Positions 24,729 to 50,282 of a DNA stretch of 64,000 nt are shown piece by piece; position 1 is the stretch's first letter, and every line of letters begins with the position of its first letter. A program made the position numbers and the translations under genes. The stretch is from a virus, in IMG/VR virus record IMGVR_UViG_3300045988_168611, positions 1 through 64,000 of that record. One strand, given 5' to 3'. The notes below the pieces were generated by a model. It ran no database searches. It saw only the letters and a program-made list of their open reading frames with translations, and had not been told where the DNA came from.

Positions 24729-25883
24729 ATGAGTACAGTAACTGGCATGAAGCGCTCCAACCGCTGGGCGCGACACGCGCTATCGATGCGAGGCGTTGAG
24801 TCTCGCGAGGTCAAGGGTGAAGCTGACATCAAGGTGCTCGTTGACACCTTGTACTTCACCAACCACGGGGCCAGGTCGAATTACCGGCCTGTCCTCCACG
24901 TCCGAGGTCGTCTCGTGGGACTTGTTCCCTATGGATCGCCTGAGATCGCCTATGGTGTGACAGAGGTGGATTTCGATCAGATGGACGGCGGTGCAACAAC
25001 TGTCGATGCATTCTACGAGTTCACTGACGAGCAGCTGGTGTCGCTGGTCGAAAAGGGCTTTTTCAACGAGGGCTTTGAGCCACCCAGCGATCTGCTCAAC
25101 CAGGTGTGGATGCTCCCGGCCCATTACGAGGGTGTTGTTATCGCACCTCGTAACGAGAACGAAGCACCACTGGCATTCCTCGATGTCGTCGATCGGGATG
25201 GCCTGGTTGTCGACGCTGTGACATCGGGTCTGGATCTGTCCGACTACTTCCCGGACTACCTCGCTCAGATCCGTGCTCGTGATCATGAGAGCGAGAAGGC
25301 TGTCGATCATGCGCTGGAGCGCACGGATCACGTGAATGATGTCTTTGCTGGGATGGAGTCTCAGTTCGATGACGAGGGTACCGATGGTCGCACCAACGAG
25401 GCCGAGGGTGCATCGATTGCTCAGGCTCTCAGCGGTGAGTCGACCGTGCTACCCGTCATGGACTCGCCTCTCTTCGATGCGCTCATGCGCAACGCTCAGG
25501 CCGCTCAGCGTGCAGATGAAACTGAGGCCGAGGTTGCGCCTGAGGCTGAAACCGAGATCCAGTCTGCTCCTGTTGCCCAGGCTCAGCCTGAGGTCGTTGA
25601 CGACGTTGAGAGCCAGCGTGCAACCCTGACGACCGATGCTTTGGCGTCGACGTTCCGTGAGGTCGTTGCTGATGTCATCAACACTTCGGTTGCTCAGAAC
25701 GCGCCCGAGATTCTGGTTCAGCCCGAGGTTGATTCGATCGAGGATCTGCACGAGGCTGTTGCTGATGCCGAGCGAGATACGGAGCGAAAGCGTCTGTCGG
25801 CTCGTGAGGCTGTGGAGGCTGCGGCACCGGTCGCAACGGCGGACGAGATTGACGCTGCTGATCTCGATGATCCAGAATTCTGA
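24729..25883 (+). CDS. hypothetical acidic protein ending in ...DLDDPEF
   Basis: ATG 24729 after AGAAGGAA. D/E/A-rich C-terminal half. Confidence 0.55.
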   Translation: MSTVTGMKRSNRWARHALSMRGVESREVKGEADIKVLVDTLYFTNHGARSNYRPVLHVRGRLVGLVPYGSPEIAYGVTEVDFDQMDGGATTVDAFYEFTDEQLVSLVEKGFFNEGFEPPSDLLNQVWMLPAHYEGVVIAPRNENEAPLAFLDVVDRDGLVVDAVTSGLDLSDYFPDYLAQIRARDHESEKAVDHALERTDHVNDVFAGMESQFDDEGTDGRTNEAEGASIAQALSGESTVLPVMDSPLFDALMRNAQAAQRADETEAEVAPEAETEIQSAPVAQAQPEVVDDVESQRATLTTDALASTFREVVADVINTSVAQNAPEILVQPEVDSIEDLHEAVADAERDTERKRLSAREAVEAAAPVATADEIDAADLDDPEF

Positions 25884-25902
25884 CATCATGAGCAGCAAGT
25901 AA

Positions 25903-25939
25903 TGACAGGGGCGGTGGGGCATACCTGCCGCCCCTGTCA
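25903..25939. other. 12-bp perfect inverted repeat (TGACAGGGGCGG / CCGCCCCTGTCA), followed by an AT-rich tract to about 26005
   Basis: Read directly. It is either the terminator of the upstream gene or the oriT inverted repeat upstream of the relaxase. Confidence 0.5.
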
Positions 25940-26023
25940 ACGCCGTACTGTATGTATGTAATGATTTTTATTTAAAAAATAGACGCAATTTGAAGCAATT
26001 AGAACGAAAGGTGTGTTGATACC

Positions 26024-28354
26024 ATGAGCTTGAAGCAGAGCATTGTTGTTGTCAACGAGTTCAGTGTGCCAACCCCAGGCGGGGGTAAACATGGCGGTTC
26101 TCGCGGTGGCACACCCGGTGCTTACGTGATGCGCTACATGGCGCGCAAGGGCGCAACCGAGCCTGTGACGCCCATTCGTCGACACGATACGGAAGACTTC
26201 ATCCTGCGCTATATGGCACGAGAGAGTGCCACAGAAAAAGCTGTGTCGAGGCATCAGCTCAAAGACAACGTGCTGCATGTGTCTGGGCAAGGCGGTGTTG
26301 CATTCGGTTATGGTCAGCCGTCACTGTCCGATGAAGGCGTGCGCCGTGCCAGTGCTGACATTCAGCGTTTGTTCGACGAGGGGCATACAGTGATGAAAAC
26401 CGTGCTGTCTTTCAGCCCTGAGTATCTTCAAGAGACAGGTGTTGTCCCCAAGGGCTTCGTCGCACAGAACAAGGGTGATTATCGAGGCCATATTGATCAG
26501 ATGCGTCTGCGTATGGCGATTATGCATGGCTTGGAGCGTATGGGGCATCGTTTCGATGATCTGCGCTACGTGGGTGTGATCCAGGTTGATACCCTGCATG
26601 TTCACTGCCACCTTGCCATGGTCGATGCCGGGCTCGGTCGACGTGTGCGTACAGAGAAGGGCATGCAACAAAAGGGCAAGCTCACCAGCACGGATATATC
26701 GCTGTTGCGACGCGGTGTTGACTCGTGGCTTGATGAGAACCAGCACGTGGCTCATATGTCCAGTGCTGTGGGCTATGAGCGCATGAACGTTGCTGCGTTC
26801 GTGAAGCGTTGGGCTCATGAGAAGGTGCTCGATGAGTCACTGCCTCAGTTGTTGTTGGCGTGCTTGCCTGCTGACAAGACGTTGTGGCGTTATGGGTCTC
26901 ATCGACCGGAGATGCGGCGCGCGAATAGTGTTGCAACAGAGCTCGTTACTGAGTTGCTCGATCGACCTGGCTCTCCCATGGGATCAGCCATGATCGCAGT
27001 CGAGACATATGCGAACCGTCGAGCTCAGCGAGAGGGTTTGGGCGATCGAGAGCGTCAGGCGCTTGTGCAGCGTGGTTATGACACGATTATGGAGCGCAGC
27101 GTCAATGGTCTGTACCAAGTGCTGCAATCTCTCCCACCCGAGGCTCTTTCTGTGCGTACACCGATGCTCAACGTGATGAGCCAGGATGTGGAGACGCTCA
27201 TGGTGACGCAATCTCAGCGCATGAAGACCCAGGCTCAGGGTATGAGCGCTGATGATGATCTGGTTGGATTCTCACTGCGCCTTCGATCGTATGGAGCTCG
27301 TCTACGAGAGCATGATACGCAGCGTGAGTATTGGCGTATGCGTGCTGCTGACTGGGAAGCCGGTCTTCAGGCAGGCGCGGTATCCCCACAATCCGAGGTG
27401 ATGCACAAGCTGTATCTGGAGGAAGAGGAATACCACGCTCGTTGCGTCAGTAAGTACCGATCGTTGCTCGGGCCACTAGCGGTAGGTGTTGACGGGCAGC
27501 GTCAGGATGACGACTCGTGGAAAGGCGTGTTGGAGTCGGTGGATAAGCGACGCGAAGCAGTCGTTGGTCTCGAAGCTCTGCTGGCAGATAGATCCATCCC
27601 GAAGATGAAGGACGCTGATGAAGCTGAGAAGCTCGGTGTTGCTGCCCATGGTGTGAGTGGTGGACGCTTGCTTGTGGCCGGTGGTAAGGCTGGTCGGACT
27701 ACGTTGAAGCAACGCTTGGAGCGAGCTCGTGCATCATTGGCTTCTCGAACAGCAGATCTTGTGTCGATGCTGTCCGGGAAAGGACTTGTATTGCAAGCGA
27801 TACAAGATGATGCGCGCGAGGATAATCAAGACGATCAGGGCGATCGTGGTGCTGTGAGTGTGGTTCCAGGGGAGCGATGGGCGCTGTCTCAGACAAAGGG
27901 TATGGATTTGCACGACGTGCGTTCTGATACTGTTGTCGACATGGCGCTTGGTCGCCATGTTGCCGATCGGTTCGTTACCTGGGCGCGCAGAAGGCGACAG
28001 CTTGTTGATGACGCTCAGGCGTATCTGCATGAGTCTGGTCAGGAAGACATTGTCGAGATGGTTCTTCCTCTCGATGATGTCCGTCGAATGAATCGTGTTG
28101 CTGATGATCTGGAACGCCAGATGTCAGCGAAGAAGACCGGGGATCTCATTCTCACGAGTGCTCTTAGTGATGTGGTGCCAGTAGCGAAACGTATTCGCCG
28201 TAGCGCAACAGTGAGTTTCGATGAAGGTCTTGCCGGAATCGTGCGGACAAGCACGTGGAGCGAGACTGAGCGTTTGGTACCTCAGCTGGAACAGGTGTTG
28301 GAAGAGAGCGAGACTTCATCAATGGATTCTATGGATTCCATGGAATTGGGATGA
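26024..28354 (+). CDS. relaxase (MOBQ-like N-terminal domain) with a long C-terminal extension
   Basis: GGSRGGTPGAYVMRYMARKGA resembles RSF1010 MobA SRSGGQSARAKADYIQREGKY (catalytic Tyr region). The histidine triad-like motif is IQVDTLHVHCHLAMV, with HVHCH at nt 26597-26611. Confidence 0.7.
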   Translation: MSLKQSIVVVNEFSVPTPGGGKHGGSRGGTPGAYVMRYMARKGATEPVTPIRRHDTEDFILRYMARESATEKAVSRHQLKDNVLHVSGQGGVAFGYGQPSLSDEGVRRASADIQRLFDEGHTVMKTVLSFSPEYLQETGVVPKGFVAQNKGDYRGHIDQMRLRMAIMHGLERMGHRFDDLRYVGVIQVDTLHVHCHLAMVDAGLGRRVRTEKGMQQKGKLTSTDISLLRRGVDSWLDENQHVAHMSSAVGYERMNVAAFVKRWAHEKVLDESLPQLLLACLPADKTLWRYGSHRPEMRRANSVATELVTELLDRPGSPMGSAMIAVETYANRRAQREGLGDRERQALVQRGYDTIMERSVNGLYQVLQSLPPEALSVRTPMLNVMSQDVETLMVTQSQRMKTQAQGMSADDDLVGFSLRLRSYGARLREHDTQREYWRMRAADWEAGLQAGAVSPQSEVMHKLYLEEEEYHARCVSKYRSLLGPLAVGVDGQRQDDDSWKGVLESVDKRREAVVGLEALLADRSIPKMKDADEAEKLGVAAHGVSGGRLLVAGGKAGRTTLKQRLERARASLASRTADLVSMLSGKGLVLQAIQDDAREDNQDDQGDRGAVSVVPGERWALSQTKGMDLHDVRSDTVVDMALGRHVADRFVTWARRRRQLVDDAQAYLHESGQEDIVEMVLPLDDVRRMNRVADDLERQMSAKKTGDLILTSALSDVVPVAKRIRRSATVSFDEGLAGIVRTSTWSETERLVPQLEQVLEESETSSMDSMDSMELG

Positions 28355-28362
28355 GATTCGCC

Positions 28363-28392
28363 TTGACATTCAGGATTTCTTTCATCTATGAT
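28363..28392 (+). promoter_or_regulatory. near-consensus promoter TTGACA-18 nt-TATGAT
   Basis: Hexamers read directly (28363-28368 and 28387-28392). Confidence 0.55.
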
Positions 28393-28490
28393 GAGAGAGC
28401 GCTGCATGGAACAAGTCCATGTATGTGAGAGGGCTGATTAACCCTCGACCGACATCCTGCGGGATGAGATGAGAAAGGAGGGTGGTCATT

Positions 28491-29054
28491 ATGGCTACTC
28501 TACGTGGTAAGGGTTCGATGAAGTCGGTGGAACTGGTCGTTGTGGAGTATCCCAACGCTCATTCCAAGGATGGCAAGCGTGCCTTCCTCGACGTGATGGT
28601 TCGACCTGTTGAGGGCGCTGCTCCTCAGCGAGTTCCTCACCTGGTTTCGACCAAGAAGGAACTCGACGGTAAGACCGTCTACGACCATCATGCTGGCTAC
28701 AGCGCTTCTCAGCGCGATGCGTTCGTTGCAGCTGCGGGCGATAACATCGTCCAGATGCCGGAGCGCAACGGTCGACCTGGTCCGACTGTTTACGCCATTC
28801 AGGCGGATGTCATGTCTGCCTCTGGCAAGCAGAAGGGCTTGGTCATCAACTCCAAGACGGTGAAGCCGTCCGAGTTGGAGCCGATCGACGAGAACATTCT
28901 CGATACGATCTACGCCTCTTCCAAGGCTGCTGCCGAGGCCGACAAGGCCCGTAAGGCTGCTGAGAAGGAGGCGCAGACTGAGGCTGCTGCTGAGGCCCAG
29001 GTTTCCGAGCCTGAGGTCGAAGAGGTTGCCGAGATCGACGAGCCTGAGTTCTGA
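28491..29054 (+). CDS. hypothetical protein with SSB-like architecture (folded N-domain, A/E/K-rich linker, acidic tip ...EIDEPEF)
   Basis: ATG 28491 after AAAGGAGGG. I could not confirm an OB fold by eye. Confidence 0.5.
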   Translation: MATLRGKGSMKSVELVVVEYPNAHSKDGKRAFLDVMVRPVEGAAPQRVPHLVSTKKELDGKTVYDHHAGYSASQRDAFVAAAGDNIVQMPERNGRPGPTVYAIQADVMSASGKQKGLVINSKTVKPSELEPIDENILDTIYASSKAAAEADKARKAAEKEAQTEAAAEAQVSEPEVEEVAEIDEPEF

Positions 29055-29076
29055 TCGAACCTGATCTTTCATGGTG

Positions 29077-29110: not shown

Positions 29111-29139
29111 CCTGTTTCTATAGCAGTCACTAATTATGC

Positions 29140-29160
29140 TAGAATGACTGGTACACCAGT
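29140..29160 (+). promoter_or_regulatory. -10 TAGAAT (29140-29145, preceded by TGC) plus the palindrome ACTGGT-AC-ACCAGT at the predicted TSS
   Basis: Read directly. The ORF-track ATG at 29144 lies inside the -10 hexamer. Confidence 0.4.
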
Positions 29161-29197
29161 CGAATCGATAGAAATGATTGAAAGATGGAGGAAAGAT

Positions 29198-32100
29198 TTG
29201 TTTGATGATGATCGTTTGAACGATGCATACCCGCTGCTTCGAGACTTTGCGGCCAAGCTTTCGCCGCCTGCTCGCGATATTGTGGGCCGAGAGAATGAGA
29301 AGATCTCTCTGATGAGCTCTCTGGCTCGCCCTGAGATGTGTAACGTGATCCTGTTGGCCCCACCTGGTACCGGTAAGGCTCATCCGAATGATGAGTTGAT
29401 CCCTGTTGCCGATGAGCGTGGATACGTGCGTGTGGGTCTGCTCAAGGTGGGCGATCGTGTCTTTGATGAGCACGGTGAGCCTGTGACCGTAACGGGTGTG
29501 TTCCCTCAGGGAATCAAGCGCGAGTACGTTGTGGTGACGAACTATGGCGATCAGGTGCGTTGCAACGATGAGCACCTGTGGACGGTGCGATCGGTTGGTG
29601 ATGTAGAAGGTGCGCAGCGAACGATGTCGCTGCGCGAAATTATGGATGCCGGTTTTGTCGGATCTGACGGTGGCCCTATCTGGCAGCTTCCTGCCTCTGG
29701 TGCGCTTGTGCGACAGAGCCGTCTTCTTCCAGTTGATCCATATGTCTGTGGTGCTTTGCTCGGCTGGGGTGTTCGTATCGATGAGCGTGGGTACGTGACC
29801 GTTCCCAATGAGATGCCCGATGAAGTCTTTGCTGCTATCGAGGATCGCATGGGGTGGGAGCGTGTGCATGATGGTGGTGAGCGTTCGACGTTTATCAACC
29901 GTGCGACAGGTAAGCGTCTGACACCTGATGAGGTGATGACTCATCCGGTGATGACGAGTGTTTTTGTTAAGTCGGAGAATCAGCGTCATATCCCGTACAC
30001 GTACATCACCAGCTCAGTGAAGGATCGAGAGGCTGTGCTACGAGCGCTGCGAGACAGTGAGTCGTACCGTTTGTCCCAAGGGACTGTATGGGTTGTTGAT
30101 GCTGATATGCGTGAGCTAGAGCGTTCTCTCGATGCGATTGGTGATATGATCGCTGAGGTGATCGACACTGGTCGTGAAGTCGAGATGACGTGCATCATGG
30201 TCGACTCTGAGACACATCTGTACCAGGTGGGTCGAGCTCATGTTGTCACGCACAACACGGTGCTGGTGCAGTCCTGTATGCAAGATGATCCAGAGCGTAT
30301 CTACCTGGAAGTCGACATGGCGAAGATGATCGCTAACCTGTCGAATCCTGAAGAGATGGCTGCGCGCCTCAAGGCTCTGTTCGACGAGGCTGAGAGTTTC
30401 TCGCAAGCCGAGGGTCGAGAGATCGTGCTGTTCATTGACGAGTTCCATCAGGTGGTGCAGCTTTCTGCTGCTGCTGTGGAAGCACTGAAGCCGTTGCTTG
30501 CTGCCTCTGGTTCGCGTGGTATCAAGGTCATCGCTGCGACCACGTATGACGAGTTCAATGCTCATATCGCATCGAATCTGCCGCTTGTCGAGCGACTGGC
30601 GCGTATCAACATCCCTCAGACGAATCGTGAGGTGACGATCGCGATTCTGAAGGGTATGGCGAAGAAGTACGGTGTCGATGAGGGGATCTTCAACGACTCT
30701 CTGTACGAGCAGATCTTTGACTACACGAATCGGTACGTTCCTGCCTCCGTGCAGCCTCGTAAGTCGATCCGTGTGCTCGATGCGATGGTGGGACGCCATC
30801 GTTACCTGGGTGAGCGAATGGACAAGAAGCTCCTTGCTGATGTTCTCAAGATCGAGTTCGGTGTTGAGGTGGAAATTAACGTCGATGCTACAGAGATCAA
30901 GTCTGAACTGGATAAGCGCGTGTTCAGTCAGGATTTTGCTACCACATCGATCGCACGTCGTTTGCAGTTGTGTGTTGCTGGGTTGAATGACCCCAGTAAG
31001 CCGATGGCATCGCTGTTGTTCACGGGGGCCACAGGTACGGGCAAGGCCACTACAGATTCTACTCGTGTACCAGTTTTTTCTGAGGACGGTTCTGTGGCAT
31101 GGAAACTTGCTGGTGACCTTGTTGTTGGCGATTACGTGTTTGCTCGCGATGGCTCTCCGACGAAGGTCCTCGGAGTGTTCCCTCAGGGGGAACGCGACGT
31201 GTACCGAGTGACGTTGGTAGACGGACGCATTCTTGATGTTTCTGACAACCACCTGTGGGCTGTTTATCCCAATAGGAGTGGGGCGTATGATGGTCCGACA
31301 ATTTATTCGACTAAGACTTTGGGATCTCTGATGAATAAACAAAGCGCTGTTGAATATTTTGTTCCTATGAATCAGCCGGTGCAGTGGCCTACGGCAAATC
31401 TCCCTGTGGATCCGTATGCGCTCGGTGCGTTGATTGCTAATGGTTGGTTTATGGGCCGCGACCTTTCTATGTATTCAGGTATCGATGAAGACATAGTTGC
31501 TCGTGTTGGCCAAGCTATTGGTGCTGTTTCGTGGGATCAACCTCGGGGTACGCATTCGTGGTGTTTCCGTACAGATAAGGAACAAGAGGTTCAGAAGGCA
31601 GATGTGCTTGTTGGTTCAGCTTCTGAGTTGATTGGTGTGCATGAGCTATCGCTATTTATCCCTGAGCAGTATTTGAATGCTTCGATTGAACAACGGTGGT
31701 CTTTGGTTCAAGGGTTGTTTGATTGCGACGGTTATATTGATGAGTACGATCATTATCGTATTTCTTATGCCACAGAATCGAAACGACTTGCTGAGGATGT
31801 TCGTATCCTGTTGCTTTCTCTTGGGGTGCAATGTTGGATTAAACGACATGAACCACGTAAGGGTTTGTTTGCAGCGACTGAATACGAAGTTCGTGTGATG
31901 GCTCGTGTTTCGGATGAACCTCGTTTTTTCAGTCTTGATCGAAAGAAGCGCCTTGCCATCGAGGGTCAGTATAGGCATAGTCGAGCGTTGGAGAAGGCGT
32001 TCGATTACGTCGGTATTCGTTCTATCGAAAAGCTCGACGCGAAAGAGAGCATGACCTGTATCTATGTCGACAACGATGAGCACCTGTATCAGGCTGGTGA

Positions 32101-32926
32101 TTTCATCGTGACGCACAACACGGAGGTCACGAAGCAACTAGCGAAGATTCTTTTCGGTGATGATCAGCGGCACCTCATCCGGTTCGATATGACCGAATGG
32201 GGTCGTGACGACAGTGTGGATCTGTTCCGCGAAGAGTTGTCGCGTCAGGTGTGGGCAACCAGTCACTGCGTGCTGCTCTTTGACGAGATCGAGAAGGCGT
32301 CCCCGCTTGTCGTGCGTCTGCTGCTCCAGGTGCTCGATGATGGTCGACTCTCTGACAAAGATGGTCGACAGGTGTCGTTCTTGAACACCTACATCGTGTT
32401 GACGACGAATGCTGGTTCGGAGATCTATCGCACCATTGGCGAGTACAACGCCGATGATCACGGTAGTGAGGCCAGCATGCGTGAGTATGAGAAGGTCATC
32501 GAAGAGTCCATTAAGAGCACGGATGGCGGTAAGTTCCCGCCTGAGCTCCTGGGACGTATCGATGCGATCGTGCCGTTCCAGCCGTTGTCGCGGCCTACGT
32601 TGCGCAAGATCATGATGAAGAAGCTGAGTGCTCTCAAGGCTGATGTGAAGCGTAAGCACGGTATCGATCTGACGATCGATAAGCGTGTTGTCGACTTCCT
32701 GGTGGAAGATGAGTCGCGTAGTGATTCTGATGCAGGTGGTGCGCGTGACATGGTGCGTCGCATGCAGCGATACCTGTCGACGGAAGTTGCAGCGTTCATC
32801 AACGAACACCCCGAGGAACGTGTGATCGCAGCCAAGATTGACGGCACGCTACGCAGCGAAGATGTGAATATTTTGAAGTCTGATGCTCGTGTGGTTGTCT
32901 TGCCGTACGACAAGCCACAGGCTTAG
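29198..32926 (+). CDS. Hsp100/Clp-type double-AAA+ ATPase (no N- or M-domain recognised) interrupted by two inteins
   Basis: Likely start TTG 29198 (GGAGG 6 nt upstream) or ATG 29174. NBD1: PPGTGK|T, IVLFIDEFHQ, VIAATT. NBD2: GATGTGK|T, VLLFDEIEKA, VLTTNAGS, PELLGRIDAIVPFQPL. Confidence 0.8.
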   Translation: MFDDDRLNDAYPLLRDFAAKLSPPARDIVGRENEKISLMSSLARPEMCNVILLAPPGTGKAHPNDELIPVADERGYVRVGLLKVGDRVFDEHGEPVTVTGVFPQGIKREYVVVTNYGDQVRCNDEHLWTVRSVGDVEGAQRTMSLREIMDAGFVGSDGGPIWQLPASGALVRQSRLLPVDPYVCGALLGWGVRIDERGYVTVPNEMPDEVFAAIEDRMGWERVHDGGERSTFINRATGKRLTPDEVMTHPVMTSVFVKSENQRHIPYTYITSSVKDREAVLRALRDSESYRLSQGTVWVVDADMRELERSLDAIGDMIAEVIDTGREVEMTCIMVDSETHLYQVGRAHVVTHNTVLVQSCMQDDPERIYLEVDMAKMIANLSNPEEMAARLKALFDEAESFSQAEGREIVLFIDEFHQVVQLSAAAVEALKPLLAASGSRGIKVIAATTYDEFNAHIASNLPLVERLARINIPQTNREVTIAILKGMAKKYGVDEGIFNDSLYEQIFDYTNRYVPASVQPRKSIRVLDAMVGRHRYLGERMDKKLLADVLKIEFGVEVEINVDATEIKSELDKRVFSQDFATTSIARRLQLCVAGLNDPSKPMASLLFTGATGTGKATTDSTRVPVFSEDGSVAWKLAGDLVVGDYVFARDGSPTKVLGVFPQGERDVYRVTLVDGRILDVSDNHLWAVYPNRSGAYDGPTIYSTKTLGSLMNKQSAVEYFVPMNQPVQWPTANLPVDPYALGALIANGWFMGRDLSMYSGIDEDIVARVGQAIGAVSWDQPRGTHSWCFRTDKEQEVQKADVLVGSASELIGVHELSLFIPEQYLNASIEQRWSLVQGLFDCDGYIDEYDHYRISYATESKRLAEDVRILLLSLGVQCWIKRHEPRKGLFAATEYEVRVMARVSDEPRFFSLDRKKRLAIEGQYRHSRALEKAFDYVGIRSIEKLDAKESMTCIYVDNDEHLYQAGDFIVTHNTEVTKQLAKILFGDDQRHLIRFDMTEWGRDDSVDLFREELSRQVWATSHCVLLFDEIEKASPLVVRLLLQVLDDGRLSDKDGRQVSFLNTYIVLTTNAGSEIYRTIGEYNADDHGSEASMREYEKVIEESIKSTDGGKFPPELLGRIDAIVPFQPLSRPTLRKIMMKKLSALKADVKRKHGIDLTIDKRVVDFLVEDESRSDSDAGGARDMVRRMQRYLSTEVAAFINEHPEERVIAAKIDGTLRSEDVNILKSDARVVVLPYDKPQA
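29378..30256 (+). mobile_element. intein 1 (293 aa) in the NBD1 Walker A; class-3-like, with a degenerate LAGLIDADG region
   Basis: Begins with Ala after GTGK and ends VVTHN|T. Carries W in DEHLW (block B), C in MTCIMVD (block F) and T in THN (block G). Confidence 0.75.
31046..32119 (+). mobile_element. intein 2 (358 aa) in the NBD2 Walker A; class-3-like, with a LAGLIDADG homing-endonuclease domain
   Basis: Begins with Ala after GTGK and ends IVTHN|T. Carries DNHLW, MTCIYVD and the LAGLIDADG-type motif LVQGLFDCDGYID. The central part (about 31300-31960) is visibly AT-richer than its flanks. Confidence 0.75.
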
Positions 32927-32939
32927 TCATATCGAATCT

Positions 32940-33047: not shown

Positions 33048-33082
33048 TCACATACAACCGAATCGATCGAAAGGATTTGTCT

Positions 33083-35454: not shown

Positions 35455-35513
35455 TAGGTTGGTGAATCAACCGAATCGAAACGACGTAAGAGAAAGGTAG
35501 AAAGGTGGTGCAT

Positions 35514-41543: not shown

Positions 41544-41584
41544 TAGAATGGAGGGCGTAATACCCGATCGATCCAGTGGATCGA
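41544..41584 (+). promoter_or_regulatory. -10 TAGAAT (41544-41549) plus the leader hairpin TCGATCC-AGT-GGATCGA (41568-41584)
   Basis: Read directly. The ORF-track ATG at 41548 lies inside the -10 hexamer. Confidence 0.4.
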
Positions 41585-41607
41585 AACTCCAGGAAGGAGA
41601 ATGCGTT

Positions 41608-44600
41608 ATGCAAACGCGCAATGCCGGACTCCGGCGTTACATGTACGAGCACATGATCGCTCGTACGATCAATCGAACCTCAGAATTGACCAAGACTCCC
41701 ATTCTTGTGTCGCAAGGTCGACGCCTGAGGGATCTCATGGAAGAGCGTCTCAACGAACAAGGCCGTTCTTTCAACGATGGTGATCTCCCTGTTGCTGATG
41801 CGTTGAACGCTATTCAAAGCGTCATGCAGGAGAACGTTCCCGGTTACAAAGACTTGTTCCAACCTGCCGATACGTCGAGCAAGGGTTACAAGGCCCTGTA
41901 TGAAGAGTTCAGGAACATGGTCGGTCTGAATGGCTCTGCTGGAGCTGCTGGTCCTCGTCTGCCGATCTCTCCGTATGATCCTCGGTGGGGGAGCCGTCGC
42001 ACTGTGAAGCAGGCGGGAACGTCTATCCTGTACGTTCTTGATGGTGACATCGCTGCGTATGCAGACGGTAAGCCGAGCAATGTTGAGAAGGTGACGACCT
42101 CGGAGCTCACTCTGTACCGCCTGACTGACGAAGGGAAGGCCAAAGAAGCAGGCCGCGCGTTGAGCCTTGATGATGTCTCGGGTCTCACCGAGCTCATGGG
42201 TCGTATGTCGACGGCTGAGTACAACGAGGTTCGTCAGTGGGTGCTGGACGGTGCTCGCAACCCTGAAACGGGGCGTTACAACGCCCGTCAGTTCATGAGC
42301 ACTGAGGCATTGGCTCGTTCCCGAGCTGTGCTCGATATGCTGGCGGAAGAGGGAATTCCGTACACGATCGAGAAGGATCTGCGTCCTGGCCAGATTCGTG
42401 CGCGTTTGACGGGCACGAATATGACAGTGCGCCTGACTGATACTCGCGACAAGGAGCAGTGGGTGGGCCGTGTTTACGACAACGGTGCGACTTTGTACTT
42501 CTCCACGACGGCTCGTCGAGACAACAAGCAGGTGGCGTATGTGCCAACTGTTGACGAGGTGTGCGACCTCGTGCGCGTTGCGTTGGGTCGACCGGTGGAG
42601 CGTAAGGACGGCAAGGGCCTCGTGGGCCGAGTGGGCGAGCGTCAGACCAGCAAGGGTAAGACGGTTCAGGAGTCGTATCTCTCCACTGGAACACTGACGA
42701 GTGCGTACAAAGACATGCCCGGTATGAACAGTGAGCAGATCGTGATTCGTCGTCAGATGAAGGAGCGTTCTGCGTCGTCCCGGTTCTTTGCTGATACACC
42801 AGAGGGCCGTGAGCAAGCGTCGGCATTCATCTCTGATGCAGTTCACAGCGCTCGCCACAACGTGGCTGAGCAGCTGGATGTCGATGGTCTGATCCAGCAG
42901 TTCCGCGATCACGAGGATGCTGCCCGTGAGGGCGCGTACATCCCTATGTTGTCTGGTGATCCTGATCTGGCGGCAGTTGGCCGTGCGTACTGGGATGTGC
43001 TTCGTGGTGCTGAGACGACGCTACTGAAGCCCGAGGCTACTCGTGCTGAATACGCTGAAGCGACGGGTCTGCTTGACGACATGGATCAAGAGAGCGATCT
43101 GTCGGGTGTTCACGACATGTTGGTTGGTTCCGTGGCGTACACGGGTACCCCGGAAGAGCGCGTTCGCGCTCATCTTCGGGATCTTCTCGATACCCAGATC
43201 GGTATCGATGAGCCTATCGACTCTGATGACTTCGTGTTCGATCCGGTGCGCGTTGCTCGTTACATGGCGAGTGAGCACGGCCAGTGGCGCAATAATGATG
43301 ATCTCGTGGCAGCTATGCGCAGTGCAGGTGTGCCCCAGGAGAAGATCGTCGGGGAGTCGTTCTACTCCAACACGTTCCGCGATCGACTGATCACTTTCGA
43401 TGAGTCCACGGCGTTGCCGATGGATGTCGTGGAGGATACCTTTACTCAGTCGATGCTCCAGGTCGTGTCGGATACGCTGGAGTCCTGCGCTGTGACGCCC
43501 GGTTCTATCCGCGTCGACGCCAACGGTGTTGTGGAGTGGACTGGCTCGATCATGCGCTCGCAGACAGGTAAGGAAGAGCCCGTGAGCGGTACGATCGGAC
43601 AGATCTTTGCTCGCGGCGAGAACGGTGAGATCATCACCCGGTTCAATTCCGGTAACGATCTGATGATCGTGCCTGGTTTTGATGCCCGTGTGGTGGCACA
43701 GAAGCCTGGGGAGAACAAGTCCCTCGAAGAGCGCACCCGGCTGATCGGTTACGAACAGCAGATGAGTGACGCGATTCGATACCGAGTTCAGGCTGATGTG
43801 CTCTCAGGTCGTTCCCGTGTGGGCGAGCCTGCCTCGCTGAACAGCGTGTACCGTCGTTTGTCGGATACGCGCCATCGCGCGGATCACTACGAGCGCGCTC
43901 TCGAAGAAGGCATGGATCGGAAGATCCTTGATGCCATTCTTGCTACCGAAGCGCGTCGTGTGCGTTACCCGAACGCTTTGCGTGATGGGTCGACGATCGA
44001 CGCTGACTTCCGTGCATCTCGTGCTCGGGAACAGGGTATTGGTGGCGATCCGGCCAACGACACGACCATGGATCCGTGGGTGTTGACCGGCGGTCGCAAT
44101 ATGTCGTTGCTCAGCGAAGAAGCCGATGGCTACTTCGATCCGATCATGACATCGGGCGGTGTGAACCAGGGTGTCACCCGTTACCTCGTGTCCGGTGCGC
44201 AGGTGAACCCTGATGGTTCGATCGTGCGTTCTGATAAGAACGATCGTGCGCCGCTGATGTTGACTGAGCAGGCTCAGCTGATGAGCTACGACCCGTTCGA
44301 TCGTCAGCAGATGACGACCTCCAATCTCATGAACGCATCGTCTGTGACGAAGCCTGTGGGTACGGCGTTCATGACTGCCGGTGGTTGGACGATGGAGGAC
44401 TCCATCGTTGTGTCTGCTGACTTCGCTCGTCAATACCGTGTTCGTGGCACTGATGGTCAGATGCGTGATCTGATCGTTGGCGACAAGATCTCTGACATGC
44501 ACGGCAACAAGGGTGTTATCTCGCTCATTGTTGACCGTGACGCGGATCTGTCTCCTGATGAGATCGAAGAGCTTCATGGGTCGACCGATATGATGACGCT

Positions 44601-47058
44601 CTTCCGGGAGAATCCGGGTCTGGATGTCGTCATGGCACCGTTCAGCGCTGTGTCTCGTTTCAACGGTGGTTCTGCCCGTGAGGCAATGCAGGAGACTGCG
44701 CCGCTTCGTTTGCCCAACGGTACGACCGTTGAGGCCGGTATGGGTAAGGTGTCGTTCATCGGTACCCATATGACGGTGGATGCAAAGACAGCCGCATACG
44801 ATGAAGCTGCGATCCGGGCTGGCCAGGGCCGTAAGGCGTCGTCTCAGCTTGCGTGGGCGTTGCAGTCCCAGGGCTGCGATAAGGTGCTGGAGCAGATGTA
44901 CGGTGGCAACCTACAAGCTCTTGCACAGCTGCGTGAGATGGCTCTGGTGTGCGGTTTGGACATCGAGCCTGATGGCACCTTGCGTGATGGTCATGATGAT
45001 CTTGCTGTCGGTGGGCAGCGCCGTCTCATTGAGATGGGCGATGTTCCGCTCACTGAACGTGGATCGTTCGACGTGCGTCGCGTTCGTAACGATTTCGCTT
45101 CGTTGATTGGTGACGCTGGCGGTGATATGGAGATTCCGTTCCCGCTGACGATGCCAACGGGTGCTCGTACGCCTCATGCGACTGATACGACGTGGCGTGT
45201 GCCGGTGCTGAGCTCGCATCTGCGATCGGGCCAGGATCTTGACGACGGTACGTCGACGGTCCATGACTACACGTATCGCTACCTTGCGATCCGTGAATGG
45301 TCGCTGCGCTACAAGCATGCTGCTGATCGAGCTGCGTCTGGTGAGCTGACTGGCAAGGAGCTTTCTGATGCTCGTCGAACGATGGCTGAGGCGATGCATC
45401 GCGCTCAGACTGCGTACGATGGCATTGCACAGGACATCATGCGTCGCCGGTTCACCGGCAAGCGCAATGTCTTCAAGGAAGGTCTCATGGCTTCGCGTCT
45501 GCCGCACTCGGCCACTGCTGTGTGGACGGGTGATCCTCGTCTGGACATCGACCAGGTCGGTGTTGGCCCGGAGCTGGCGAAGAAACTGCATCTGCGTGAC
45601 GGTGATTACGCGCTTGTGTGGCGTGACCCCGTTCTTCGTGATGCGGGTGTGCGTTACATGCGCGTGAGCCTTGACGATCGTCTCACTGGTGTGAGTGTCA
45701 ATCCCAATATGGTCAAGTGCTTCGACGGCGATTTCGATGGTGACTCTGTTGCCGTCGTGAAGCTGGGTGATGGTCCGGCACATGAGCAAGCGCTGGAGCG
45801 CCTGACTGTCGAGGCTAACCTCATTGATCTGGGTCAGAGCATGGATGACGAGGGTCGTTACCCTCTTGCGATGCACAACGCGCTCGATGTGAAGGTGTCG
45901 CAGCACTACGATTCTCGTCATGCGGATGCGATGGATGAGGTCCACCAGCGTGCGAACGACGCCTACTATGATCTCGTGGAAGGGGAGGCTAATCGCGAGC
46001 AGTTCCTGGACGAGGGTCGTGATGTCGTGGATGCAGCGTCCTACATGTACCGTGAGGCGCTCAAGCATCAGTACGGTGAGGCTGTGTTGTCGTTTGGTTC
46101 CGTTCAGGAGCACATGAAGTCTGTGGAGGCTGCGTGTATTGAGACGGGAGCTAAAGGCTCGCCTAAGAAGATGCTGGATTATGCTCGATACATCGGGTAT
46201 GACCCGGAGAACCAGGTGGATCTGGTGACCACGCGCGTGACGCGCGAGGAACAGCTGGGTACCATGTATGCAACGGCTGTGAAGTCGTTTGGTACCGGTG
46301 TTGCCGGTACGTTCTCTCAGCGCGGCGTGCGAGCTCTTCGTAACGACGAGCTCAAGGCTGTGTTGGAGCTGACGTACCCGGTGACGCAGAGTATTCTGCA
46401 AGCCAAGCACGATCCGGTGGATGCTCGTCACCGGTATGAGCTGCTGATGGGTCCGGCTCGAAGCTTGTGGCGTGGTCAGGCGATTGCACAGGATGGCAAC
46501 GGTGTGTGGAACACTGTGACGGACGACGATCGTAAGCCGGTTCAGGCCACCAAGGATCAGTGGGTTGCCATGTTCTCGCAGTTCTACGGCGATGCAGGTC
46601 TGGGTGTGGCTGTGAACAGCGACAACATCACGAAGGTTGCAAATGCGCTCAGCGATAGCAACGGAGTGATGGTGAACCTGGAAGATGAGAAGGTCATTGA
46701 GCAGCTTGCTTCTCCGATGGATCGTCTGGCTTACGGCGGTGACTTCACCACGATGCAAGCGTTGGCTGAGGCTCACGCTAACCTGTTCGAGGGTCAGTGG
46801 AACGCCAAGTTTGCGCCAGCTCGTGTGCGTGAGGTGATGGAGGCCGATGTGGAGACGCAGGCCGAGGCACCGGTGATCGCCATGGAAGACACAGTGGCTC
46901 GTGTGGATCGTGATGAGAAGATCGGTCGACGTAAGTCGACATCGTGGGCTGTTCCGGTGCGTTCGCATACGGGTACCAGTGCAGCTGAGCGTTACGGTCT
47001 GACGGCACAGGTGGACAATGAGGCAGATGTGTCTGTCGACGACGGTTTCGAGTTGTGA
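41608..47058 (+). CDS. single-polypeptide fused beta/beta'-like two-barrel RNA polymerase (1816 aa)
   Basis: ATG 41608 after AGGAAGGAG. RpoB-like FMTAGGWTMEDSIVVS, VGDKISDMHGNKGVIS and DVVMAPFSAVSRFNGGSAREA. RpoC-like KRNVFKEGLMASRLPHSATAV, FDGDFDGDSVAV and ETGAKGS. Confidence 0.8.
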   Translation: MQTRNAGLRRYMYEHMIARTINRTSELTKTPILVSQGRRLRDLMEERLNEQGRSFNDGDLPVADALNAIQSVMQENVPGYKDLFQPADTSSKGYKALYEEFRNMVGLNGSAGAAGPRLPISPYDPRWGSRRTVKQAGTSILYVLDGDIAAYADGKPSNVEKVTTSELTLYRLTDEGKAKEAGRALSLDDVSGLTELMGRMSTAEYNEVRQWVLDGARNPETGRYNARQFMSTEALARSRAVLDMLAEEGIPYTIEKDLRPGQIRARLTGTNMTVRLTDTRDKEQWVGRVYDNGATLYFSTTARRDNKQVAYVPTVDEVCDLVRVALGRPVERKDGKGLVGRVGERQTSKGKTVQESYLSTGTLTSAYKDMPGMNSEQIVIRRQMKERSASSRFFADTPEGREQASAFISDAVHSARHNVAEQLDVDGLIQQFRDHEDAAREGAYIPMLSGDPDLAAVGRAYWDVLRGAETTLLKPEATRAEYAEATGLLDDMDQESDLSGVHDMLVGSVAYTGTPEERVRAHLRDLLDTQIGIDEPIDSDDFVFDPVRVARYMASEHGQWRNNDDLVAAMRSAGVPQEKIVGESFYSNTFRDRLITFDESTALPMDVVEDTFTQSMLQVVSDTLESCAVTPGSIRVDANGVVEWTGSIMRSQTGKEEPVSGTIGQIFARGENGEIITRFNSGNDLMIVPGFDARVVAQKPGENKSLEERTRLIGYEQQMSDAIRYRVQADVLSGRSRVGEPASLNSVYRRLSDTRHRADHYERALEEGMDRKILDAILATEARRVRYPNALRDGSTIDADFRASRAREQGIGGDPANDTTMDPWVLTGGRNMSLLSEEADGYFDPIMTSGGVNQGVTRYLVSGAQVNPDGSIVRSDKNDRAPLMLTEQAQLMSYDPFDRQQMTTSNLMNASSVTKPVGTAFMTAGGWTMEDSIVVSADFARQYRVRGTDGQMRDLIVGDKISDMHGNKGVISLIVDRDADLSPDEIEELHGSTDMMTLFRENPGLDVVMAPFSAVSRFNGGSAREAMQETAPLRLPNGTTVEAGMGKVSFIGTHMTVDAKTAAYDEAAIRAGQGRKASSQLAWALQSQGCDKVLEQMYGGNLQALAQLREMALVCGLDIEPDGTLRDGHDDLAVGGQRRLIEMGDVPLTERGSFDVRRVRNDFASLIGDAGGDMEIPFPLTMPTGARTPHATDTTWRVPVLSSHLRSGQDLDDGTSTVHDYTYRYLAIREWSLRYKHAADRAASGELTGKELSDARRTMAEAMHRAQTAYDGIAQDIMRRRFTGKRNVFKEGLMASRLPHSATAVWTGDPRLDIDQVGVGPELAKKLHLRDGDYALVWRDPVLRDAGVRYMRVSLDDRLTGVSVNPNMVKCFDGDFDGDSVAVVKLGDGPAHEQALERLTVEANLIDLGQSMDDEGRYPLAMHNALDVKVSQHYDSRHADAMDEVHQRANDAYYDLVEGEANREQFLDEGRDVVDAASYMYREALKHQYGEAVLSFGSVQEHMKSVEAACIETGAKGSPKKMLDYARYIGYDPENQVDLVTTRVTREEQLGTMYATAVKSFGTGVAGTFSQRGVRALRNDELKAVLELTYPVTQSILQAKHDPVDARHRYELLMGPARSLWRGQAIAQDGNGVWNTVTDDDRKPVQATKDQWVAMFSQFYGDAGLGVAVNSDNITKVANALSDSNGVMVNLEDEKVIEQLASPMDRLAYGGDFTTMQALAEAHANLFEGQWNAKFAPARVREVMEADVETQAEAPVIAMEDTVARVDRDEKIGRRKSTSWAVPVRSHTGTSAAERYGLTAQVDNEADVSVDDGFEL

Positions 47059-47087
47059 TCATCATGTGATCATGCGCTGAAGCTATG

Positions 47088-47125
47088 AAGAAGCAGGTCT
47101 CGCCTTTAGGTGGGGCCTGCTTCTT
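47088..47125 (+). terminator. hairpin AAGAAGCAGG.../...CCTGCTTCTT (10 perfect bp, extended by G-U/G-C pairs)
   Basis: Read directly after the stop at 47058. Confidence 0.6.
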
Positions 47126-47170
47126 TGTATTAGTGGAGGCTGGCTTGTGTCGTAATCGTTGCAATAGTGC

Positions 47171-47189
47171 GATATACTGGTATACGAGT
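47171..47189 (+). promoter_or_regulatory. promoter/operator box GATATACTGGTATACGAGT
   Basis: 16 of 19 nt identical to 32972-32990 (GATACCCTCGTATACGAGT). Related to 9676-9695. Confidence 0.4.
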
Positions 47190-47213
47190 CGAATGCAACT
47201 AAACGAAAGGAAG

Positions 47214-48566
47214 ATGGTCATGTCGACGATATGGTACGAGGGTCCAGCTGATGGCAACATTCAGAGGCGTTACGGTCTTGATTCTCATGAGTGGGTGGGA
47301 TCGCTGTCCGATAGGGTGGCGACAATCATTGACAAGGATGATCCTTGGAAGGAAACGCATGTGAATGCGCTTCTGCGTGATGGTGTGGAATTCTTTGCGC
47401 AGAAGTCTCAGGATCATCCAGAATTGGGTGATGATGACCAGATGCGTGATGCTGTCTCGTATGTGGCACACAGCGGTGTTCTCATCGATGATGAGACTCT
47501 GTTGGCTCTTATAGAAGCGGATGACAAGTATGTTGTTCCGTTTGGTGCAGAGTCGCTTATGTATGAATACAACAAGATGCATCAGCCTGATTACGGACGG
47601 CTGTATCAGCGTGAGCGTGATGCTGCACAGTTGCCGTACGCGGAGGCAACAGATGAAGAGATCAAGCAGTACTATGGCCTTGATCCACATGAGTGGAAGG
47701 GGAGCCTTGCCGATAAGGTGATGGCGATCGTCAACAAGAATACGCCTGACAAGGAAACGCATGTGAATGCGCTCTTGCGCGATGGCGCACGTCTGTTCGC
47801 TCAGAATATGGAAGCTCAACCGGTATCGGGTGTGAGTGACGATGATTTGCGTTACGCGGTGGAATCTGGTGGCGATGAGCTGCGTGCTGCCATCTCTGAC
47901 GCATCATGGGCTGGTGTCCTCATCAACGATGAGGCGATGGAAGCTATCAAGCATGTGGAGAAGGAGTACATCACCGAGTTTGGTGGAGATTCTCTCACAC
48001 GTGCGTACGATCAGATGCGCAAGTTGAACGATGCGCGCGCTCATTACCGCGAGGCTGCGAAGGAGATGCGCACGGCTGCCCCTGTTGCTCCGGCTCCGAC
48101 AACCCCGAGTTTTGATCGGTTCGCTCCGCCTCAGGGTGCGCGTGTGACGACGGTTCCGCCGCCTGTGCGTACTGTTGGGTCTGCTCGATCTGCCCGCTCT
48201 GTACAGCCTGTGCAGTCTGTGCCGCCTATTCCTCAGCCCCCGAAGACGCCGGGATCTCAGGTTCGTACAGGTGGTCCTGTGCGAGTGGGTAATGTCGCCA
48301 AAGATTGGCTCGCGTCGATGGGTCGTGACGAGAAGGGTCATCCTCTTGCGTCTGCGCCTGCACCGTCTGCACAGTCCCCTGCATCGTCTGGGCCTAAGAT
48401 TCCGGCTCAGCGATCGGGTTCGATTCAGGCTGCGCTCCCTGGCAGTGGTGTCACCGTGGGTCGATCGACGCCGCGTGTGCCACCTACTGCTGGTACAGCT
48501 CGTCGTATGAGTGCTCCTGAGCCCCAGGTGCAGACCCCAAGCGTTGATGACGGCTTCGAGCTGTAA
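47214..48566 (+). CDS. hypothetical protein with an internal tandem duplication, a Pro-rich tail and a C-terminal ...VDDGFEL
   Basis: ATG 47214 after GAAAGGAAG. Repeat units start YGLDSHEW (47271) and YGLDPHEW (47673), and both contain KETHVNALLRDG. Confidence 0.6.
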   Translation: MVMSTIWYEGPADGNIQRRYGLDSHEWVGSLSDRVATIIDKDDPWKETHVNALLRDGVEFFAQKSQDHPELGDDDQMRDAVSYVAHSGVLIDDETLLALIEADDKYVVPFGAESLMYEYNKMHQPDYGRLYQRERDAAQLPYAEATDEEIKQYYGLDPHEWKGSLADKVMAIVNKNTPDKETHVNALLRDGARLFAQNMEAQPVSGVSDDDLRYAVESGGDELRAAISDASWAGVLINDEAMEAIKHVEKEYITEFGGDSLTRAYDQMRKLNDARAHYREAAKEMRTAAPVAPAPTTPSFDRFAPPQGARVTTVPPPVRTVGSARSARSVQPVQSVPPIPQPPKTPGSQVRTGGPVRVGNVAKDWLASMGRDEKGHPLASAPAPSAQSPASSGPKIPAQRSGSIQAALPGSGVTVGRSTPRVPPTAGTARRMSAPEPQVQTPSVDDGFEL

Positions 48567-48608
48567 CGCGCCTTCGAAGAGATTGAAAGCAATAGAAAGG
48601 AGGAAAAG

Positions 48609-50282
48609 ATGGTTCGCCCACCTCGTCAACTTCCAGCACCTCGGTACGGGGGTGACGTTGGTCCGCAGAAGGATCAAGACGAAACTGCGACGATGGTTGT
48701 TACCAAGGAGCAGATTTTCGATGAGAAGCCTGAACCTGCCGAGCCTACCCAGGCAGTAGAGCCAAAGCCTGCGCTTGATTGGGCGCAACAGCTGAGGCTT
48801 GATATGCGCTACCACGCTGATGGGTATCTTCATGCTCTCAGCCAGATCGATATGAAGTCGATGAAGCGAAAGGCTGACATCGCTTCTCGCATGAACGATC
48901 TTCAGGGTAAGCACAAAGCGTATGCCTCGATGATGGTTCTCAGCGCTCTCATTCCACTGAAAGACGGTGTGTCGATGTCGGCTGTGGCCGAATCTGTTGG
49001 CATGGGCGTCACGATGTGGATGCTGTCGCCTAACTTCCGTCAACAGGTGAAGTCGTTTGCTCGCGATGCTCGTATGGCTGTCGAAGACATGGCAGAGGCT
49101 CGTCGACGCAGTCAGTCGAAACAGTTGCATGATCAGGCCGATCGACATCGGCAGAAGCATGGTGGTGAACTACCGCCATCTCTGAAGCGTCGTCTGGAGC
49201 GTATTGAAGCCAAGGAGCGTAATGGTCGCATCCCGTTTAATGAAGCGAGTGCGGCGTTGACACATCTCGGTTTGAGCGAAGCGATGTTCAACCAGATGCG
49301 TCAACCTGGTGTGGATCCTGCTGGGGTCCAAGAGGGCTATGCACACCTGATGGAGCGTTTCTGGGACGATGTTCAGAAGGACGGCCTGGACCCTGAACGA
49401 GTGAACACCGTCAGCCGCATGCTTATGGGTCAACGGATGCGTTATGAGCCTCATTGGGCGAATGCGTTCGTTGAGACGGCTCATGGTGAAGTCGACATGG
49501 ACATGGTGGAGCAAGTGGATGCTCAGACGGGTGAACCGCGTCGAACGTGGACCGGTATCTGGTCCACGCGCATGGGCGAGCCCATCGTGGGCGGTTCTTT
49601 CACTGTCCGTCCTCCGTACAACGAGATGCAGCATGAGTTGTCTCTGAGTACGTGCATGGCTCGTGAGATGGAGCGTGCAGCGCTGAATGGCAACATTGCG
49701 GATTTGAACGAATCGCTGCTTGCCTATGGTTCTGCCTGGTCTGTTCGGGACAAGAACCTGGATGTGCACAGCGTTCCTGGTGCGATGGGTGAGAAGATTC
49801 GTCGAGCTCGTCGTGGTCTCGATGCCATGGAATTCGATGGTTTCGATCGAGATGCGCAGCGAGACATCTATGCGACATCGTTCGTTCACGCCATGGACAT
49901 GGTGGCGAAGGCTCACCCGGACATCGAACGTCACTGGGCGCAGCAGTATGGGTCTCAGTGGCGATCAGAAATGCGAGACTTCGCAGCGACGCCTGAAGAG
50001 ACCTACAACCGGTGGCAACGGGGGGAGTTTTATTCTGATGCACGTGAATCTCCAGGGCATGACAACGCCCATGCGGATCCCCACACGGAGCGTATGAGGG
50101 AAGACTCAAGGCGCAGGCGCAGCGCGTACAACCGCGCGCGTGACAACCAGGAGTACAACGCTCATGAGACATCAGCGTTTAGCGCTGATACTGATTTCGA
50201 ACTCAACGATGTCGACGACGGGTTTGACATGGGTGGGTACGATCGACCTAATGACAATGATGGCTTTGAGCCGTCTCTATGA
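48609..50282 (+). CDS. hypothetical protein (557 aa) with an acidic-aromatic C-terminus (DTDFELNDVDDGFDMGG...NDGFEPSL)
   Basis: ATG after AAAGGAGG. No recognisable domain. Confidence 0.6.
   Translation: MVRPPRQLPAPRYGGDVGPQKDQDETATMVVTKEQIFDEKPEPAEPTQAVEPKPALDWAQQLRLDMRYHADGYLHALSQIDMKSMKRKADIASRMNDLQGKHKAYASMMVLSALIPLKDGVSMSAVAESVGMGVTMWMLSPNFRQQVKSFARDARMAVEDMAEARRRSQSKQLHDQADRHRQKHGGELPPSLKRRLERIEAKERNGRIPFNEASAALTHLGLSEAMFNQMRQPGVDPAGVQEGYAHLMERFWDDVQKDGLDPERVNTVSRMLMGQRMRYEPHWANAFVETAHGEVDMDMVEQVDAQTGEPRRTWTGIWSTRMGEPIVGGSFTVRPPYNEMQHELSLSTCMAREMERAALNGNIADLNESLLAYGSAWSVRDKNLDVHSVPGAMGEKIRRARRGLDAMEFDGFDRDAQRDIYATSFVHAMDMVAKAHPDIERHWAQQYGSQWRSEMRDFAATPEETYNRWQRGEFYSDARESPGHDNAHADPHTERMREDSRRRRSAYNRARDNQEYNAHETSAFSADTDFELNDVDDGFDMGGYDRPNDNDGFEPSL

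Follow-up and report, generated by a model that had tools for sequence, protein, structure and literature searches.

Two non-homologous proteins encoded beside one another in a 64,000-nucleotide stretch of DNA (positions 1 to 64,000 of IMG/VR virus record IMGVR_UViG_3300045988_168611, here called the window), a fused beta-beta' RNA polymerase (RNAP) and a lineage-specific protein, end in the same eight residues, SVDDGFEL, and related acidic tips close several further proteins encoded in the window. The gene content of the window is that of a Gram-positive-type conjugative element, whose host is an Actinomyces-like bacterium. The behavior of the tips across homologues indicates that they are selected functional elements under purifying selection. 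We consider it a real possibility, though somewhat short of probable, that they act as C-terminal short linear motifs by which nucleic-acid-processing proteins are brought to the type IV coupling apparatus, with delivery alongside the single strand to follow. What appears new here, as far as sequence can tell, is a docking- or export-type C-terminal peptide on an unusual cargo set centered on the RNAP of a conjugative element.

Acidic C-terminal tips in the window and in homologues

An earlier reading of the letters alone (the sequence-only reading) had listed five proteins with such a C-terminus, and translation confirmed all five (Table 1): the 24729 and 28491 proteins, ending DLDDPEF and EIDEPEF, the RNAP and the 47214 protein, both ending SVDDGFEL, and P557. 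It had put the two SVDDGFEL tips in the right place with coordinates that covered seven of their eight residues; the full 8-mers are those of Table 1. Absent from that list were a sixth tip-bearing protein, of 108 residues, encoded between P557 and an HU-like gene, and the MobL relaxase, whose tail reads ..DSMDSMELG. The motif recurs within two of the tails, the last 30 residues of P557 holding three copies (TDFEL, DDGFDM and NDGFEPSL) and the tail of the 108-residue protein two (IDPEFEE and the terminal GGYEFGG). The claim that low-complexity linkers precede the tips also held. Four of the five proteins have a net charge of −5 to −11 over their last 40 residues; the tails carry net negative charge, and K and R are absent from the tips. 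AlphaFold2 (AF2) models show disordered tails (predicted local distance difference test, pLDDT, below 50) at residues 170–187 of the 28491 protein, a member of the P190 family, and at residues 521–557 of P557. The 24729 protein (384 residues, encoded immediately upstream of the relaxase) consists of a conserved N-terminal domain of ~200 residues followed by an acidic, low-complexity C-terminal half, and the 47214 protein of a tandem internal duplication of a domain of ~150 residues (YGLD.HEW.GSL..ETHVNALLRDG), a Pro/Ser/Ala-rich linker and the tip.

A loose descriptor of the tip matched five window proteins, where internal windows of these acidic proteins predict 2.1 (P=0.06), an excess that is weak because the proteins are acidic overall; a strict regular expression, chosen post hoc, matched three where 0.03 were expected. 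Given the weakness of the window-only enrichment under the loose definition, the case for the tips rests on their homologues. The sequence-only reading had made its proposal depend on conservation of the tips there, and they are clearly conserved. In the 47214 family, which is confined to an Actinomyces-type clade and comprises long (~440 residues) and short (~300 residues) forms, with two adjacent paralogues in some of the related loci (L004, L005), 111 of the 120 homologue clusters listed (57–100% identity) end exactly in SVDDGFEL, the remainder ending in DDGFGL or DDDFEL, and the tip is preceded by 65 distinct 30-mers. Similarly, each of the 45 full-length close homologues in the P190 family, of which the most divergent has 63% identity, closes with EP(E/G)(F/L), and in 43 the ending is EPEF; the linker before it varies in both length and sequence.

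The two SVDDGFEL tips of the window are encoded by TCT GTC GAC GAC GGT TTC GAG TTG in the RNAP gene and by AGC GTT GAT GAC GGC TTC GAG CTG in the 47214 gene. Five of the eight codons differ, all synonymously, and the flanking sequences share no similarity, which rules out a recent DNA duplication as the source of the identical 8-mer and argues that selection acts on the peptide and not on a DNA copy. Pure chance or composition as the origin of the tips is ruled out by their conservation in homologues, despite the weak loose enrichment in the window.

At greater evolutionary distance, the C-termini of 138 full-length RNAPs, representing clusters at ≤50% identity, were compared. An acidic Phi-x-Phi tip (Phi, a hydrophobic residue) lies within the last six residues of 39 of them, where internal or tail windows would give 3.7–5.4 (binomial P ≤1e-23). 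The right-anchored profile of these representatives shows acidic residues at −8 to −4 (28–36%), a hydrophobic residue at −3 (44%), E or G at −2, and L or F at −1; information content anchored in this way peaks in the last six to eight residues in all four large families. Actinobacterial RNAP tips include DDYGMGY, DDYGLGG, DYEMGS, DGFEYGF, ESDGFQP and DDGFEL, and those of Staphylococcus plasmids NDKGFELEM and ASGFDLEM. The tip is ancient in the RNAP family.

Tips of the P557/P579 family read EDYQPA, EHEYQA, DVDFELG, DGFEMGG and DGFEPSL, and those of the P121 family (69–70 loci) EIEPDLEL, IDPDFEL, LDEGFEF and DNGYEL. The 108-residue protein is not linked to the P121 family by blastp; its tail, ..IDPE[FL]E..GGYEFGG, is retained in L004, L093 and L094. 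The 24729 family is homologous over its N-terminal domain in six elements (relatives in L085, L088, L089, L092 and L001 at blastp E 1e-33 to 1e-60) and carries the tips DDPEF, DDEPGLG, GNGPELE, DSHEFS and EDGEQSLGT. Distant P190 homologues end in DEPAVG, DEPAMG, DEPELG or DAPSFG, and Kribbella-type homologues (L032, L033, L076, L078; about 950–1660) have two separate tail motifs, ..GDVPLFED .. EELAVG. The window lineage keeps the first type of motif only, at the very end (DEPEF), and Streptomyces the second only (DEPAVG). In MobL the tail of the window recurs as ..DSVDSMELG in L085–L088.

The proteins that carry a tip

The share of proteins with a tip, defined as an acidic-plus-hydrophobic end free of K and R, was determined among the unique tails of ~80 related actinobacterial loci. 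Tips were found on 94% of P121, 91% of RNAP, 89% of P190 and 69% of P579 tails, and on 3% of tails of the type IV coupling protein (T4CP), 0–5% of those of the Clp-like ATPase and 0% of those of a conserved membrane protein. Among the window proteins, the topoisomerase, the putative channel components, the lysozyme, the T4CP, the Clp-like ATPase and the HU-like protein lack a tip. The suggestion in the sequence-only reading that tips mark a set of proteins was thus borne out for a specific subset, namely the RNAP, its downstream neighbors, the two relaxase-flanking proteins and, in the clade of the window, the relaxase. The presence of tips on cargo-like families and their rarity or absence on machine parts indicate that the tag marks soluble nucleic-acid-processing proteins rather than the secretion machine.

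At least two classes of tip are present within the window: D(D/E)PEF closes both relaxase-flanking proteins, and D-G-F-E-L marks the products of the RNAP operon. A Phi-E-L-COOH core is found on RNAP, 47214-family paralogues and P557 in the window, L004, L005, L093 and L094.

Candidate readers of the tips and competing explanations

In the mechanism that we propose, each tip would comprise a disordered acidic linker followed by a hydrophobic or aromatic residue near the free carboxylate (..D-D-G-F-E-L, ..D-E-P-E-F, ..S-M-E-L-G, ..G-Y-E-F-G-G). The tagged cargo would be the relaxase and its two flanking proteins, the RNAP, and the proteins encoded directly after the RNAP, and the tips would be read by the VirD4-type T4CP, a candidate receptor, perhaps acting through the Clp-like ATPase encoded alongside, a candidate unfoldase or receptor. 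Cargo proteins would then travel with the transferred single strand to the recipient, where the RNAP could transcribe or prime the incoming DNA ahead of host functions. We infer reading by a component of the coupling apparatus, and translocation of the tagged proteins, from several features: the tips stand at the extreme C-terminus of disordered tails, they are confined to cargo-like proteins, the relaxase in this clade has a related tip, and the gene linkage of RNAP and T4CP is ancient. The relaxase tip DSMELG resembles DEPELG, DEPGLG and DVDFELG of other families. Relaxases are the canonical protein substrates of type IV secretion systems (T4SSs), and both T4SS substrates and the substrates of AAA+ unfoldases are typically recognized at a disordered C-terminus.

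Several known systems offer partial precedents. The Dot/Icm (type IVB) signal consists of an E-block rich in Glu and a hydrophobic residue close to −3, is read by DotM/DotL, and marks many unrelated proteins. The tips resemble it in marking many unrelated proteins, here with a proposed role in a coupling complex, and in joining an acidic C-terminus to a hydrophobic residue at −3; this applies to the F of DDGFEL and not to DxPEF, where F is at −1. They differ from it in being sharp, near-invariant 5–8-mers, the E-block being a loose compositional signal, and in belonging to a Gram-positive-type conjugative T4SS with a VirD4-like T4CP. Among the window proteins scanned, Pfam detected neither DotM nor IcmSW families, and the domains of the T4CP are of VirD4/TraG/TrwB type only. 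The F T4SS translocates SSB (single-stranded DNA-binding protein), PsiB and ParA/B, and its coupling protein TraD contacts TraM through a C-terminal tail (PMC8406263). A short C-terminal tail would likewise take part in contact between relaxosome and coupling protein here, with the polarity reversed: the F tail is on the coupling protein, whereas in the window it is on the putative cargo and the T4CP is tipless. The primases RP4 TraC1 and R64 SogL in conjugation, and the virion RNAP of phage N4 in injection, are delivered with DNA (PMC5512222). By analogy, the element would supply a polymerase acting on freshly entered DNA; in contrast to those cases, the enzyme here is a two-barrel beta-beta' fusion of an unrelated family, and the signals there are not acidic tips. 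Extending this analogy, acidic Phi-x-Phi tips could be the protein translocation signal of Gram-positive-type conjugative T4SSs and could, with the Clp-like unfoldase, send a transcription or priming kit to the recipient (the RNAP, P557, the 108-residue protein P108, a tip-mimicking protein specific to the clade and a protein that coats ssDNA) as a conjugative counterpart of the injected N4 virion RNAP, a generalization that we regard as doubtful.

A number of observations weigh against reading by the coupling apparatus. Only 28% of the distant RNAP representatives have a tip under the strict definition. The MobL tip is not conserved beyond the clade of the window, MobL of distant elements having a weaker tip or none (..DRPLE, ..EEGLE, ..EREQKD, ..TSPGM). 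The topoisomerase and the HU-like protein, both plausible cargo, are among the tipless proteins. Known VirB/D4 signals carry positive charge and are not acidic. Sequence and structure analysis identified no receptor for the tips. To these are added the different sequence classes of the tips and, in other genera, a consensus specific to each family (DDYGMGY in RNAP, EDYQPA in P579, EPDLEL in P121, DEPAVG in P190). A permutation test that compared tip similarity within the same element and between different elements, across RNAP, P579 and P121, was not significant (p=0.16 and 0.23). In L093 the RNAP ends in DSGLEL and its 47214-family neighbor in DDDFEL, that is, the two have drifted unequally, and the Phi-E-L-COOH core alone is still common to both. 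The interpretation given in the sequence-only reading is sustained in part: the tips do mark a set of proteins, but the presence of at least two motif classes and the negative covariation leave a single receptor unsupported.

The same tails could instead serve docking without export, tethering the RNAP, its accessory proteins and the relaxase-flanking proteins to a nucleoprotein hub on the transferred single strand, with P190, the RNAP itself, or host proteins that read the SSB C-terminus as candidate hubs; we hold this to be possible, if on the unlikely side. The SSB C-terminal tip (SSB-Ct), ..DDDIPF in E. coli and ..D(D/E)EPPF in actinobacteria, is a docking peptide that recruits many partners in E. 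coli, and the tips can be likened to it in their disordered linker, their acidic residues and a final residue that is hydrophobic or aromatic and bears the free carboxylate. A single residue separates DLDDPEF and EIDEPEF from genuine actinobacterial plasmid SSB tips (..SDEEPPF and ..NDEPPF in L002 and L003), DDPEF and DEPEF differing from DEPPF in ending P-E-F and not P-P-F or I-P-F. Every tagged protein is a predicted or plausible nucleic-acid handler, and the two or three motif copies in the tails of the 108-residue protein and P557 suggest avidity. T7 provides a further parallel, since its SSB, gp2.5, and its helicase-primase, gp4, have acidic Phe-ended tails that share one site on T7 DNA polymerase; both there and here, non-homologous nucleic-acid proteins of one mobile element bear a common acidic, aromatic-ended tail, although T7 concerns a phage replisome with a known receptor and other motif sequences and the present case concerns conjugation.

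The identity of the carriers tells against docking of the SSB kind. The sequence-only reading had called the 28491 protein SSB-like, a label that found no support in Pfam, NCBIfam, PHROG, PDB-profile or Foldseek searches. No tip-bearing protein matched an SSB family in Pfam, NCBIfam or PHROG, and the P190 family profile had no match among PDB sequences. A Foldseek search of the P190 AF2 model (mean pLDDT 80.7) against PDB and BFVD gave no significant fold match (best E ~0.04), ssDNA-binding proteins being weak hits with a TM score of ~0.2. The model does predict a layout reminiscent of SSB, with a beta-rich domain containing a helix between strands, a long helix or linker, and a disordered acidic tail. 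P557 (AF2 pLDDT 68, all-alpha with one hairpin) matched nothing in PDB by profile or by Foldseek of its model. The carriers are thus unlike SSB in not being demonstrable OB-fold proteins, and the arrangement differs as well, many proteins here bearing a tip where a single SSB tip serves a multitude of partners. Tips of the DDGFEL class do not fit the SSB-Ct, nor do DDYGMGY and EDYQPA resemble it, the P190 tip in most genera is DEPAVG, unlike SSB, and the negative covariation test counts here as well.

Alternatively, there may be no shared reader. Each family would then have its own tail function, such as autoinhibition by a DNA-mimicking tail that folds back onto the basic nucleic-acid-binding surface of its own protein, or pairwise contacts in an RNAP–P579–P121 complex, the resemblance between families being generic acidic-tail chemistry and the D-G-F-E-L of the Actinomyces clade local convergence or mimicry by the 47214 protein. 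The family-specific consensus across genera, the non-significant covariation and the weak loose enrichment in the window all favor this explanation. It is nonetheless unlikely: an identical 8-mer stands on two non-homologous proteins and is kept in the great majority of 47214-family clusters, the Phi-E-L-COOH core is found on RNAP, 47214-family paralogues and P557 in five elements, and the limitation of tips to one functional class points to a shared reader, in the RNAP operon if not beyond it.

It is very improbable that the tips are degradation or unfolding tags by which the Clp-like AAA+ ATPases of the element limit how long the RNAP and its partners last, or how active they are, in the donor without export, for although the window encodes two Clp/Hsp100-like ATPases and disordered C-terminal tags are commonly engaged by AAA+ unfoldases (as ssrA is by ClpX), the window yielded neither a ClpP-type protease nor ClpP-docking information, the acidic tips are unlike known actinobacterial C-terminal degrons, which end ..LAA, and the idea partly overlaps the variant of our proposal in which the unfoldase feeds the T4CP. 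Further candidates were ruled out on sequence grounds: a beta-clamp motif of the QL[SD]LF type, because the tips are acidic and lack a Q-L core; an Arg-rich, positively charged signal of the VirB/D4 (Agrobacterium) type, because the net charge of the tails is negative and the tips are free of K and R; and sortase signals or Pup/ubiquitin-like Gly-Gly ends.

The element, its relatives and what the tips may mean

The long open reading frames of the window were scanned against Pfam, and the resulting features are listed in Table 1 together with the tips.

Table 1. Genes and C-terminal tips of the window, positions counted from its first nucleotide
Feature	Position	Strand	Basis or remark
Topoisomerase	9727-11940		Pfam
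Tail-lysozyme-type hydrolase	20630-22567		Pfam
24729 protein	24729-25883	+	
Tip DLDDPEF of 24729 protein	25860-25880	+	translation
MobL relaxase	26024-28354	+	Pfam MobL, E 4e-64
Tip DSMELG of MobL relaxase	28334-28351	+	
28491 protein (P190 family)	28491-29054	+	
Tip EIDEPEF of 28491 protein	29031-29051	+	translation
ClpB/Hsp100-like double-AAA+ ATPase with intein	29144-32926	+	Pfam AAA_2, ClpB_D2-small, LAGLIDADG_3, Hint
VirD4-type T4CP, 1351 aa, ATPase domain ~860-1055	35505-39560	+	Pfam T4SS-DNA_transf, TraG-D_C, TrwB_AAD_bind
DUF4379 treble-clef zinc-finger gene	39644-41428	-	
Fused beta-beta' two-barrel RNAP, 1836 aa, DFDGD motif	41548-47058	+	Pfam Rpb2_6, Rpb1_2
Tip SVDDGFEL of RNAP	47032-47055	+	translation
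47214 protein, lineage-specific	47085/47214-48566	+	translation
Tip SVDDGFEL of 47214 protein	48540-48563	+	translation
P557 (P557/P579 family), directly downstream partner of RNAP in the family	48609-50282	+	
Tail of P557, ending TDFELNDVDDGFDMGGYDRPNDNDGFEPSL	50190-50279	+	translation
108-aa protein between P557 and HU-like gene	50300-50626	+	positional equivalent of P121 family
Tail NIDPEFEEIRRESGGYEFGG of 108-aa protein	50564-50623	+	
Module: MazF/PemK-like toxin, 1046-aa UvrD-like helicase, 622-aa ClpB-like double-AAA ATPase, 568-aa unknown protein, MoxR-like AAA_5 ATPase	52437-61975	-	
Second Clp/Hsp100-like ATPase (the 622-aa protein of the module)	56948-58816	-	

No near-identical DNA match to the window was found in the plasmid collection, its relatives there being recognizable at the protein level only. 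Large plasmids of Streptomyces, Rhodococcus and Gordonia carry syntenic RNAP homologues, and plasmids of Staphylococcus and Lactococcus partial ones. When one genome was scanned for each species, the search identified 78 Actinomycetota loci in which an RNAP homologue adjoins a T4CP, the closest (96% and 86% identity) lying on two contigs of an uncultured Actinomyces metagenome-assembled genome. A T4CP homologue is found upstream of RNAP in 80 loci and the P557/P579 family directly downstream in 80, the P121 family being the next gene after it in 69–70, and the Clp-like ATPase lies between relaxase and T4CP in all relatives examined (L001–L003, L085–L089). The RNAP family comprises 506 cluster representatives at E ≤1e-3, of ~1800–3200 residues, the longer of which suggest extra fused domains. 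On the staphylococcal plasmids SAP020A (L082) and pAYP1020 of S. capitis (L084) the module has the same order and runs T4CP, 290-residue protein, 704-residue protein, RNAP of ~1800 residues, 238-residue protein, 144-residue protein, topoisomerase and tail lysozyme. MOB-suite types these plasmids as mobilizable or non-mobilizable, and their transfer system may be under-recognized by typing tools. Searches of the literature on the RNAP of such elements, on SAP020A and on actinobacterial MobL yielded no description of the tips or of a role for the RNAP.

Other features of the window vary among its relatives. The intein of the ClpB/Hsp100-like gene is present in L085, L087 and L088 and missing from L086, whose protein is intein-free at 887 residues; this difference in otherwise near-identical elements indicates that the intein is polymorphic. 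The DUF4379 gene sits between T4CP and RNAP and is also found in the close relatives L086 and L093–L095, though not at that position in the Streptomyces, Rhodococcus or Gordonia plasmids. The minus-strand module has the same order after the RNAP operon in L093–L095 and may have a defense or addiction role. All 2-kb bins across positions 1–64000, those over the minus-strand genes included, have a positive GC skew (0.06–0.22).

The choice of protein cargo by Gram-positive conjugation systems is poorly understood, and hundreds of elements from actinobacteria and firmicutes carry the gene for a large two-barrel RNAP beside that of a coupling protein. A near-invariant tag of six to eight residues on the RNAP, its neighbors and the relaxase region provides a concrete handle, deletable and swappable, for finding the receptor. 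It opens the questions of whether such an element ships transcription machinery to recipients, whether a Clp-like unfoldase feeds the T4SS, and how single-stranded DNA is established in these phyla. If the tips are mimics of the SSB tip, they would show how elements of this kind plug into the replication and repair hubs of their hosts.

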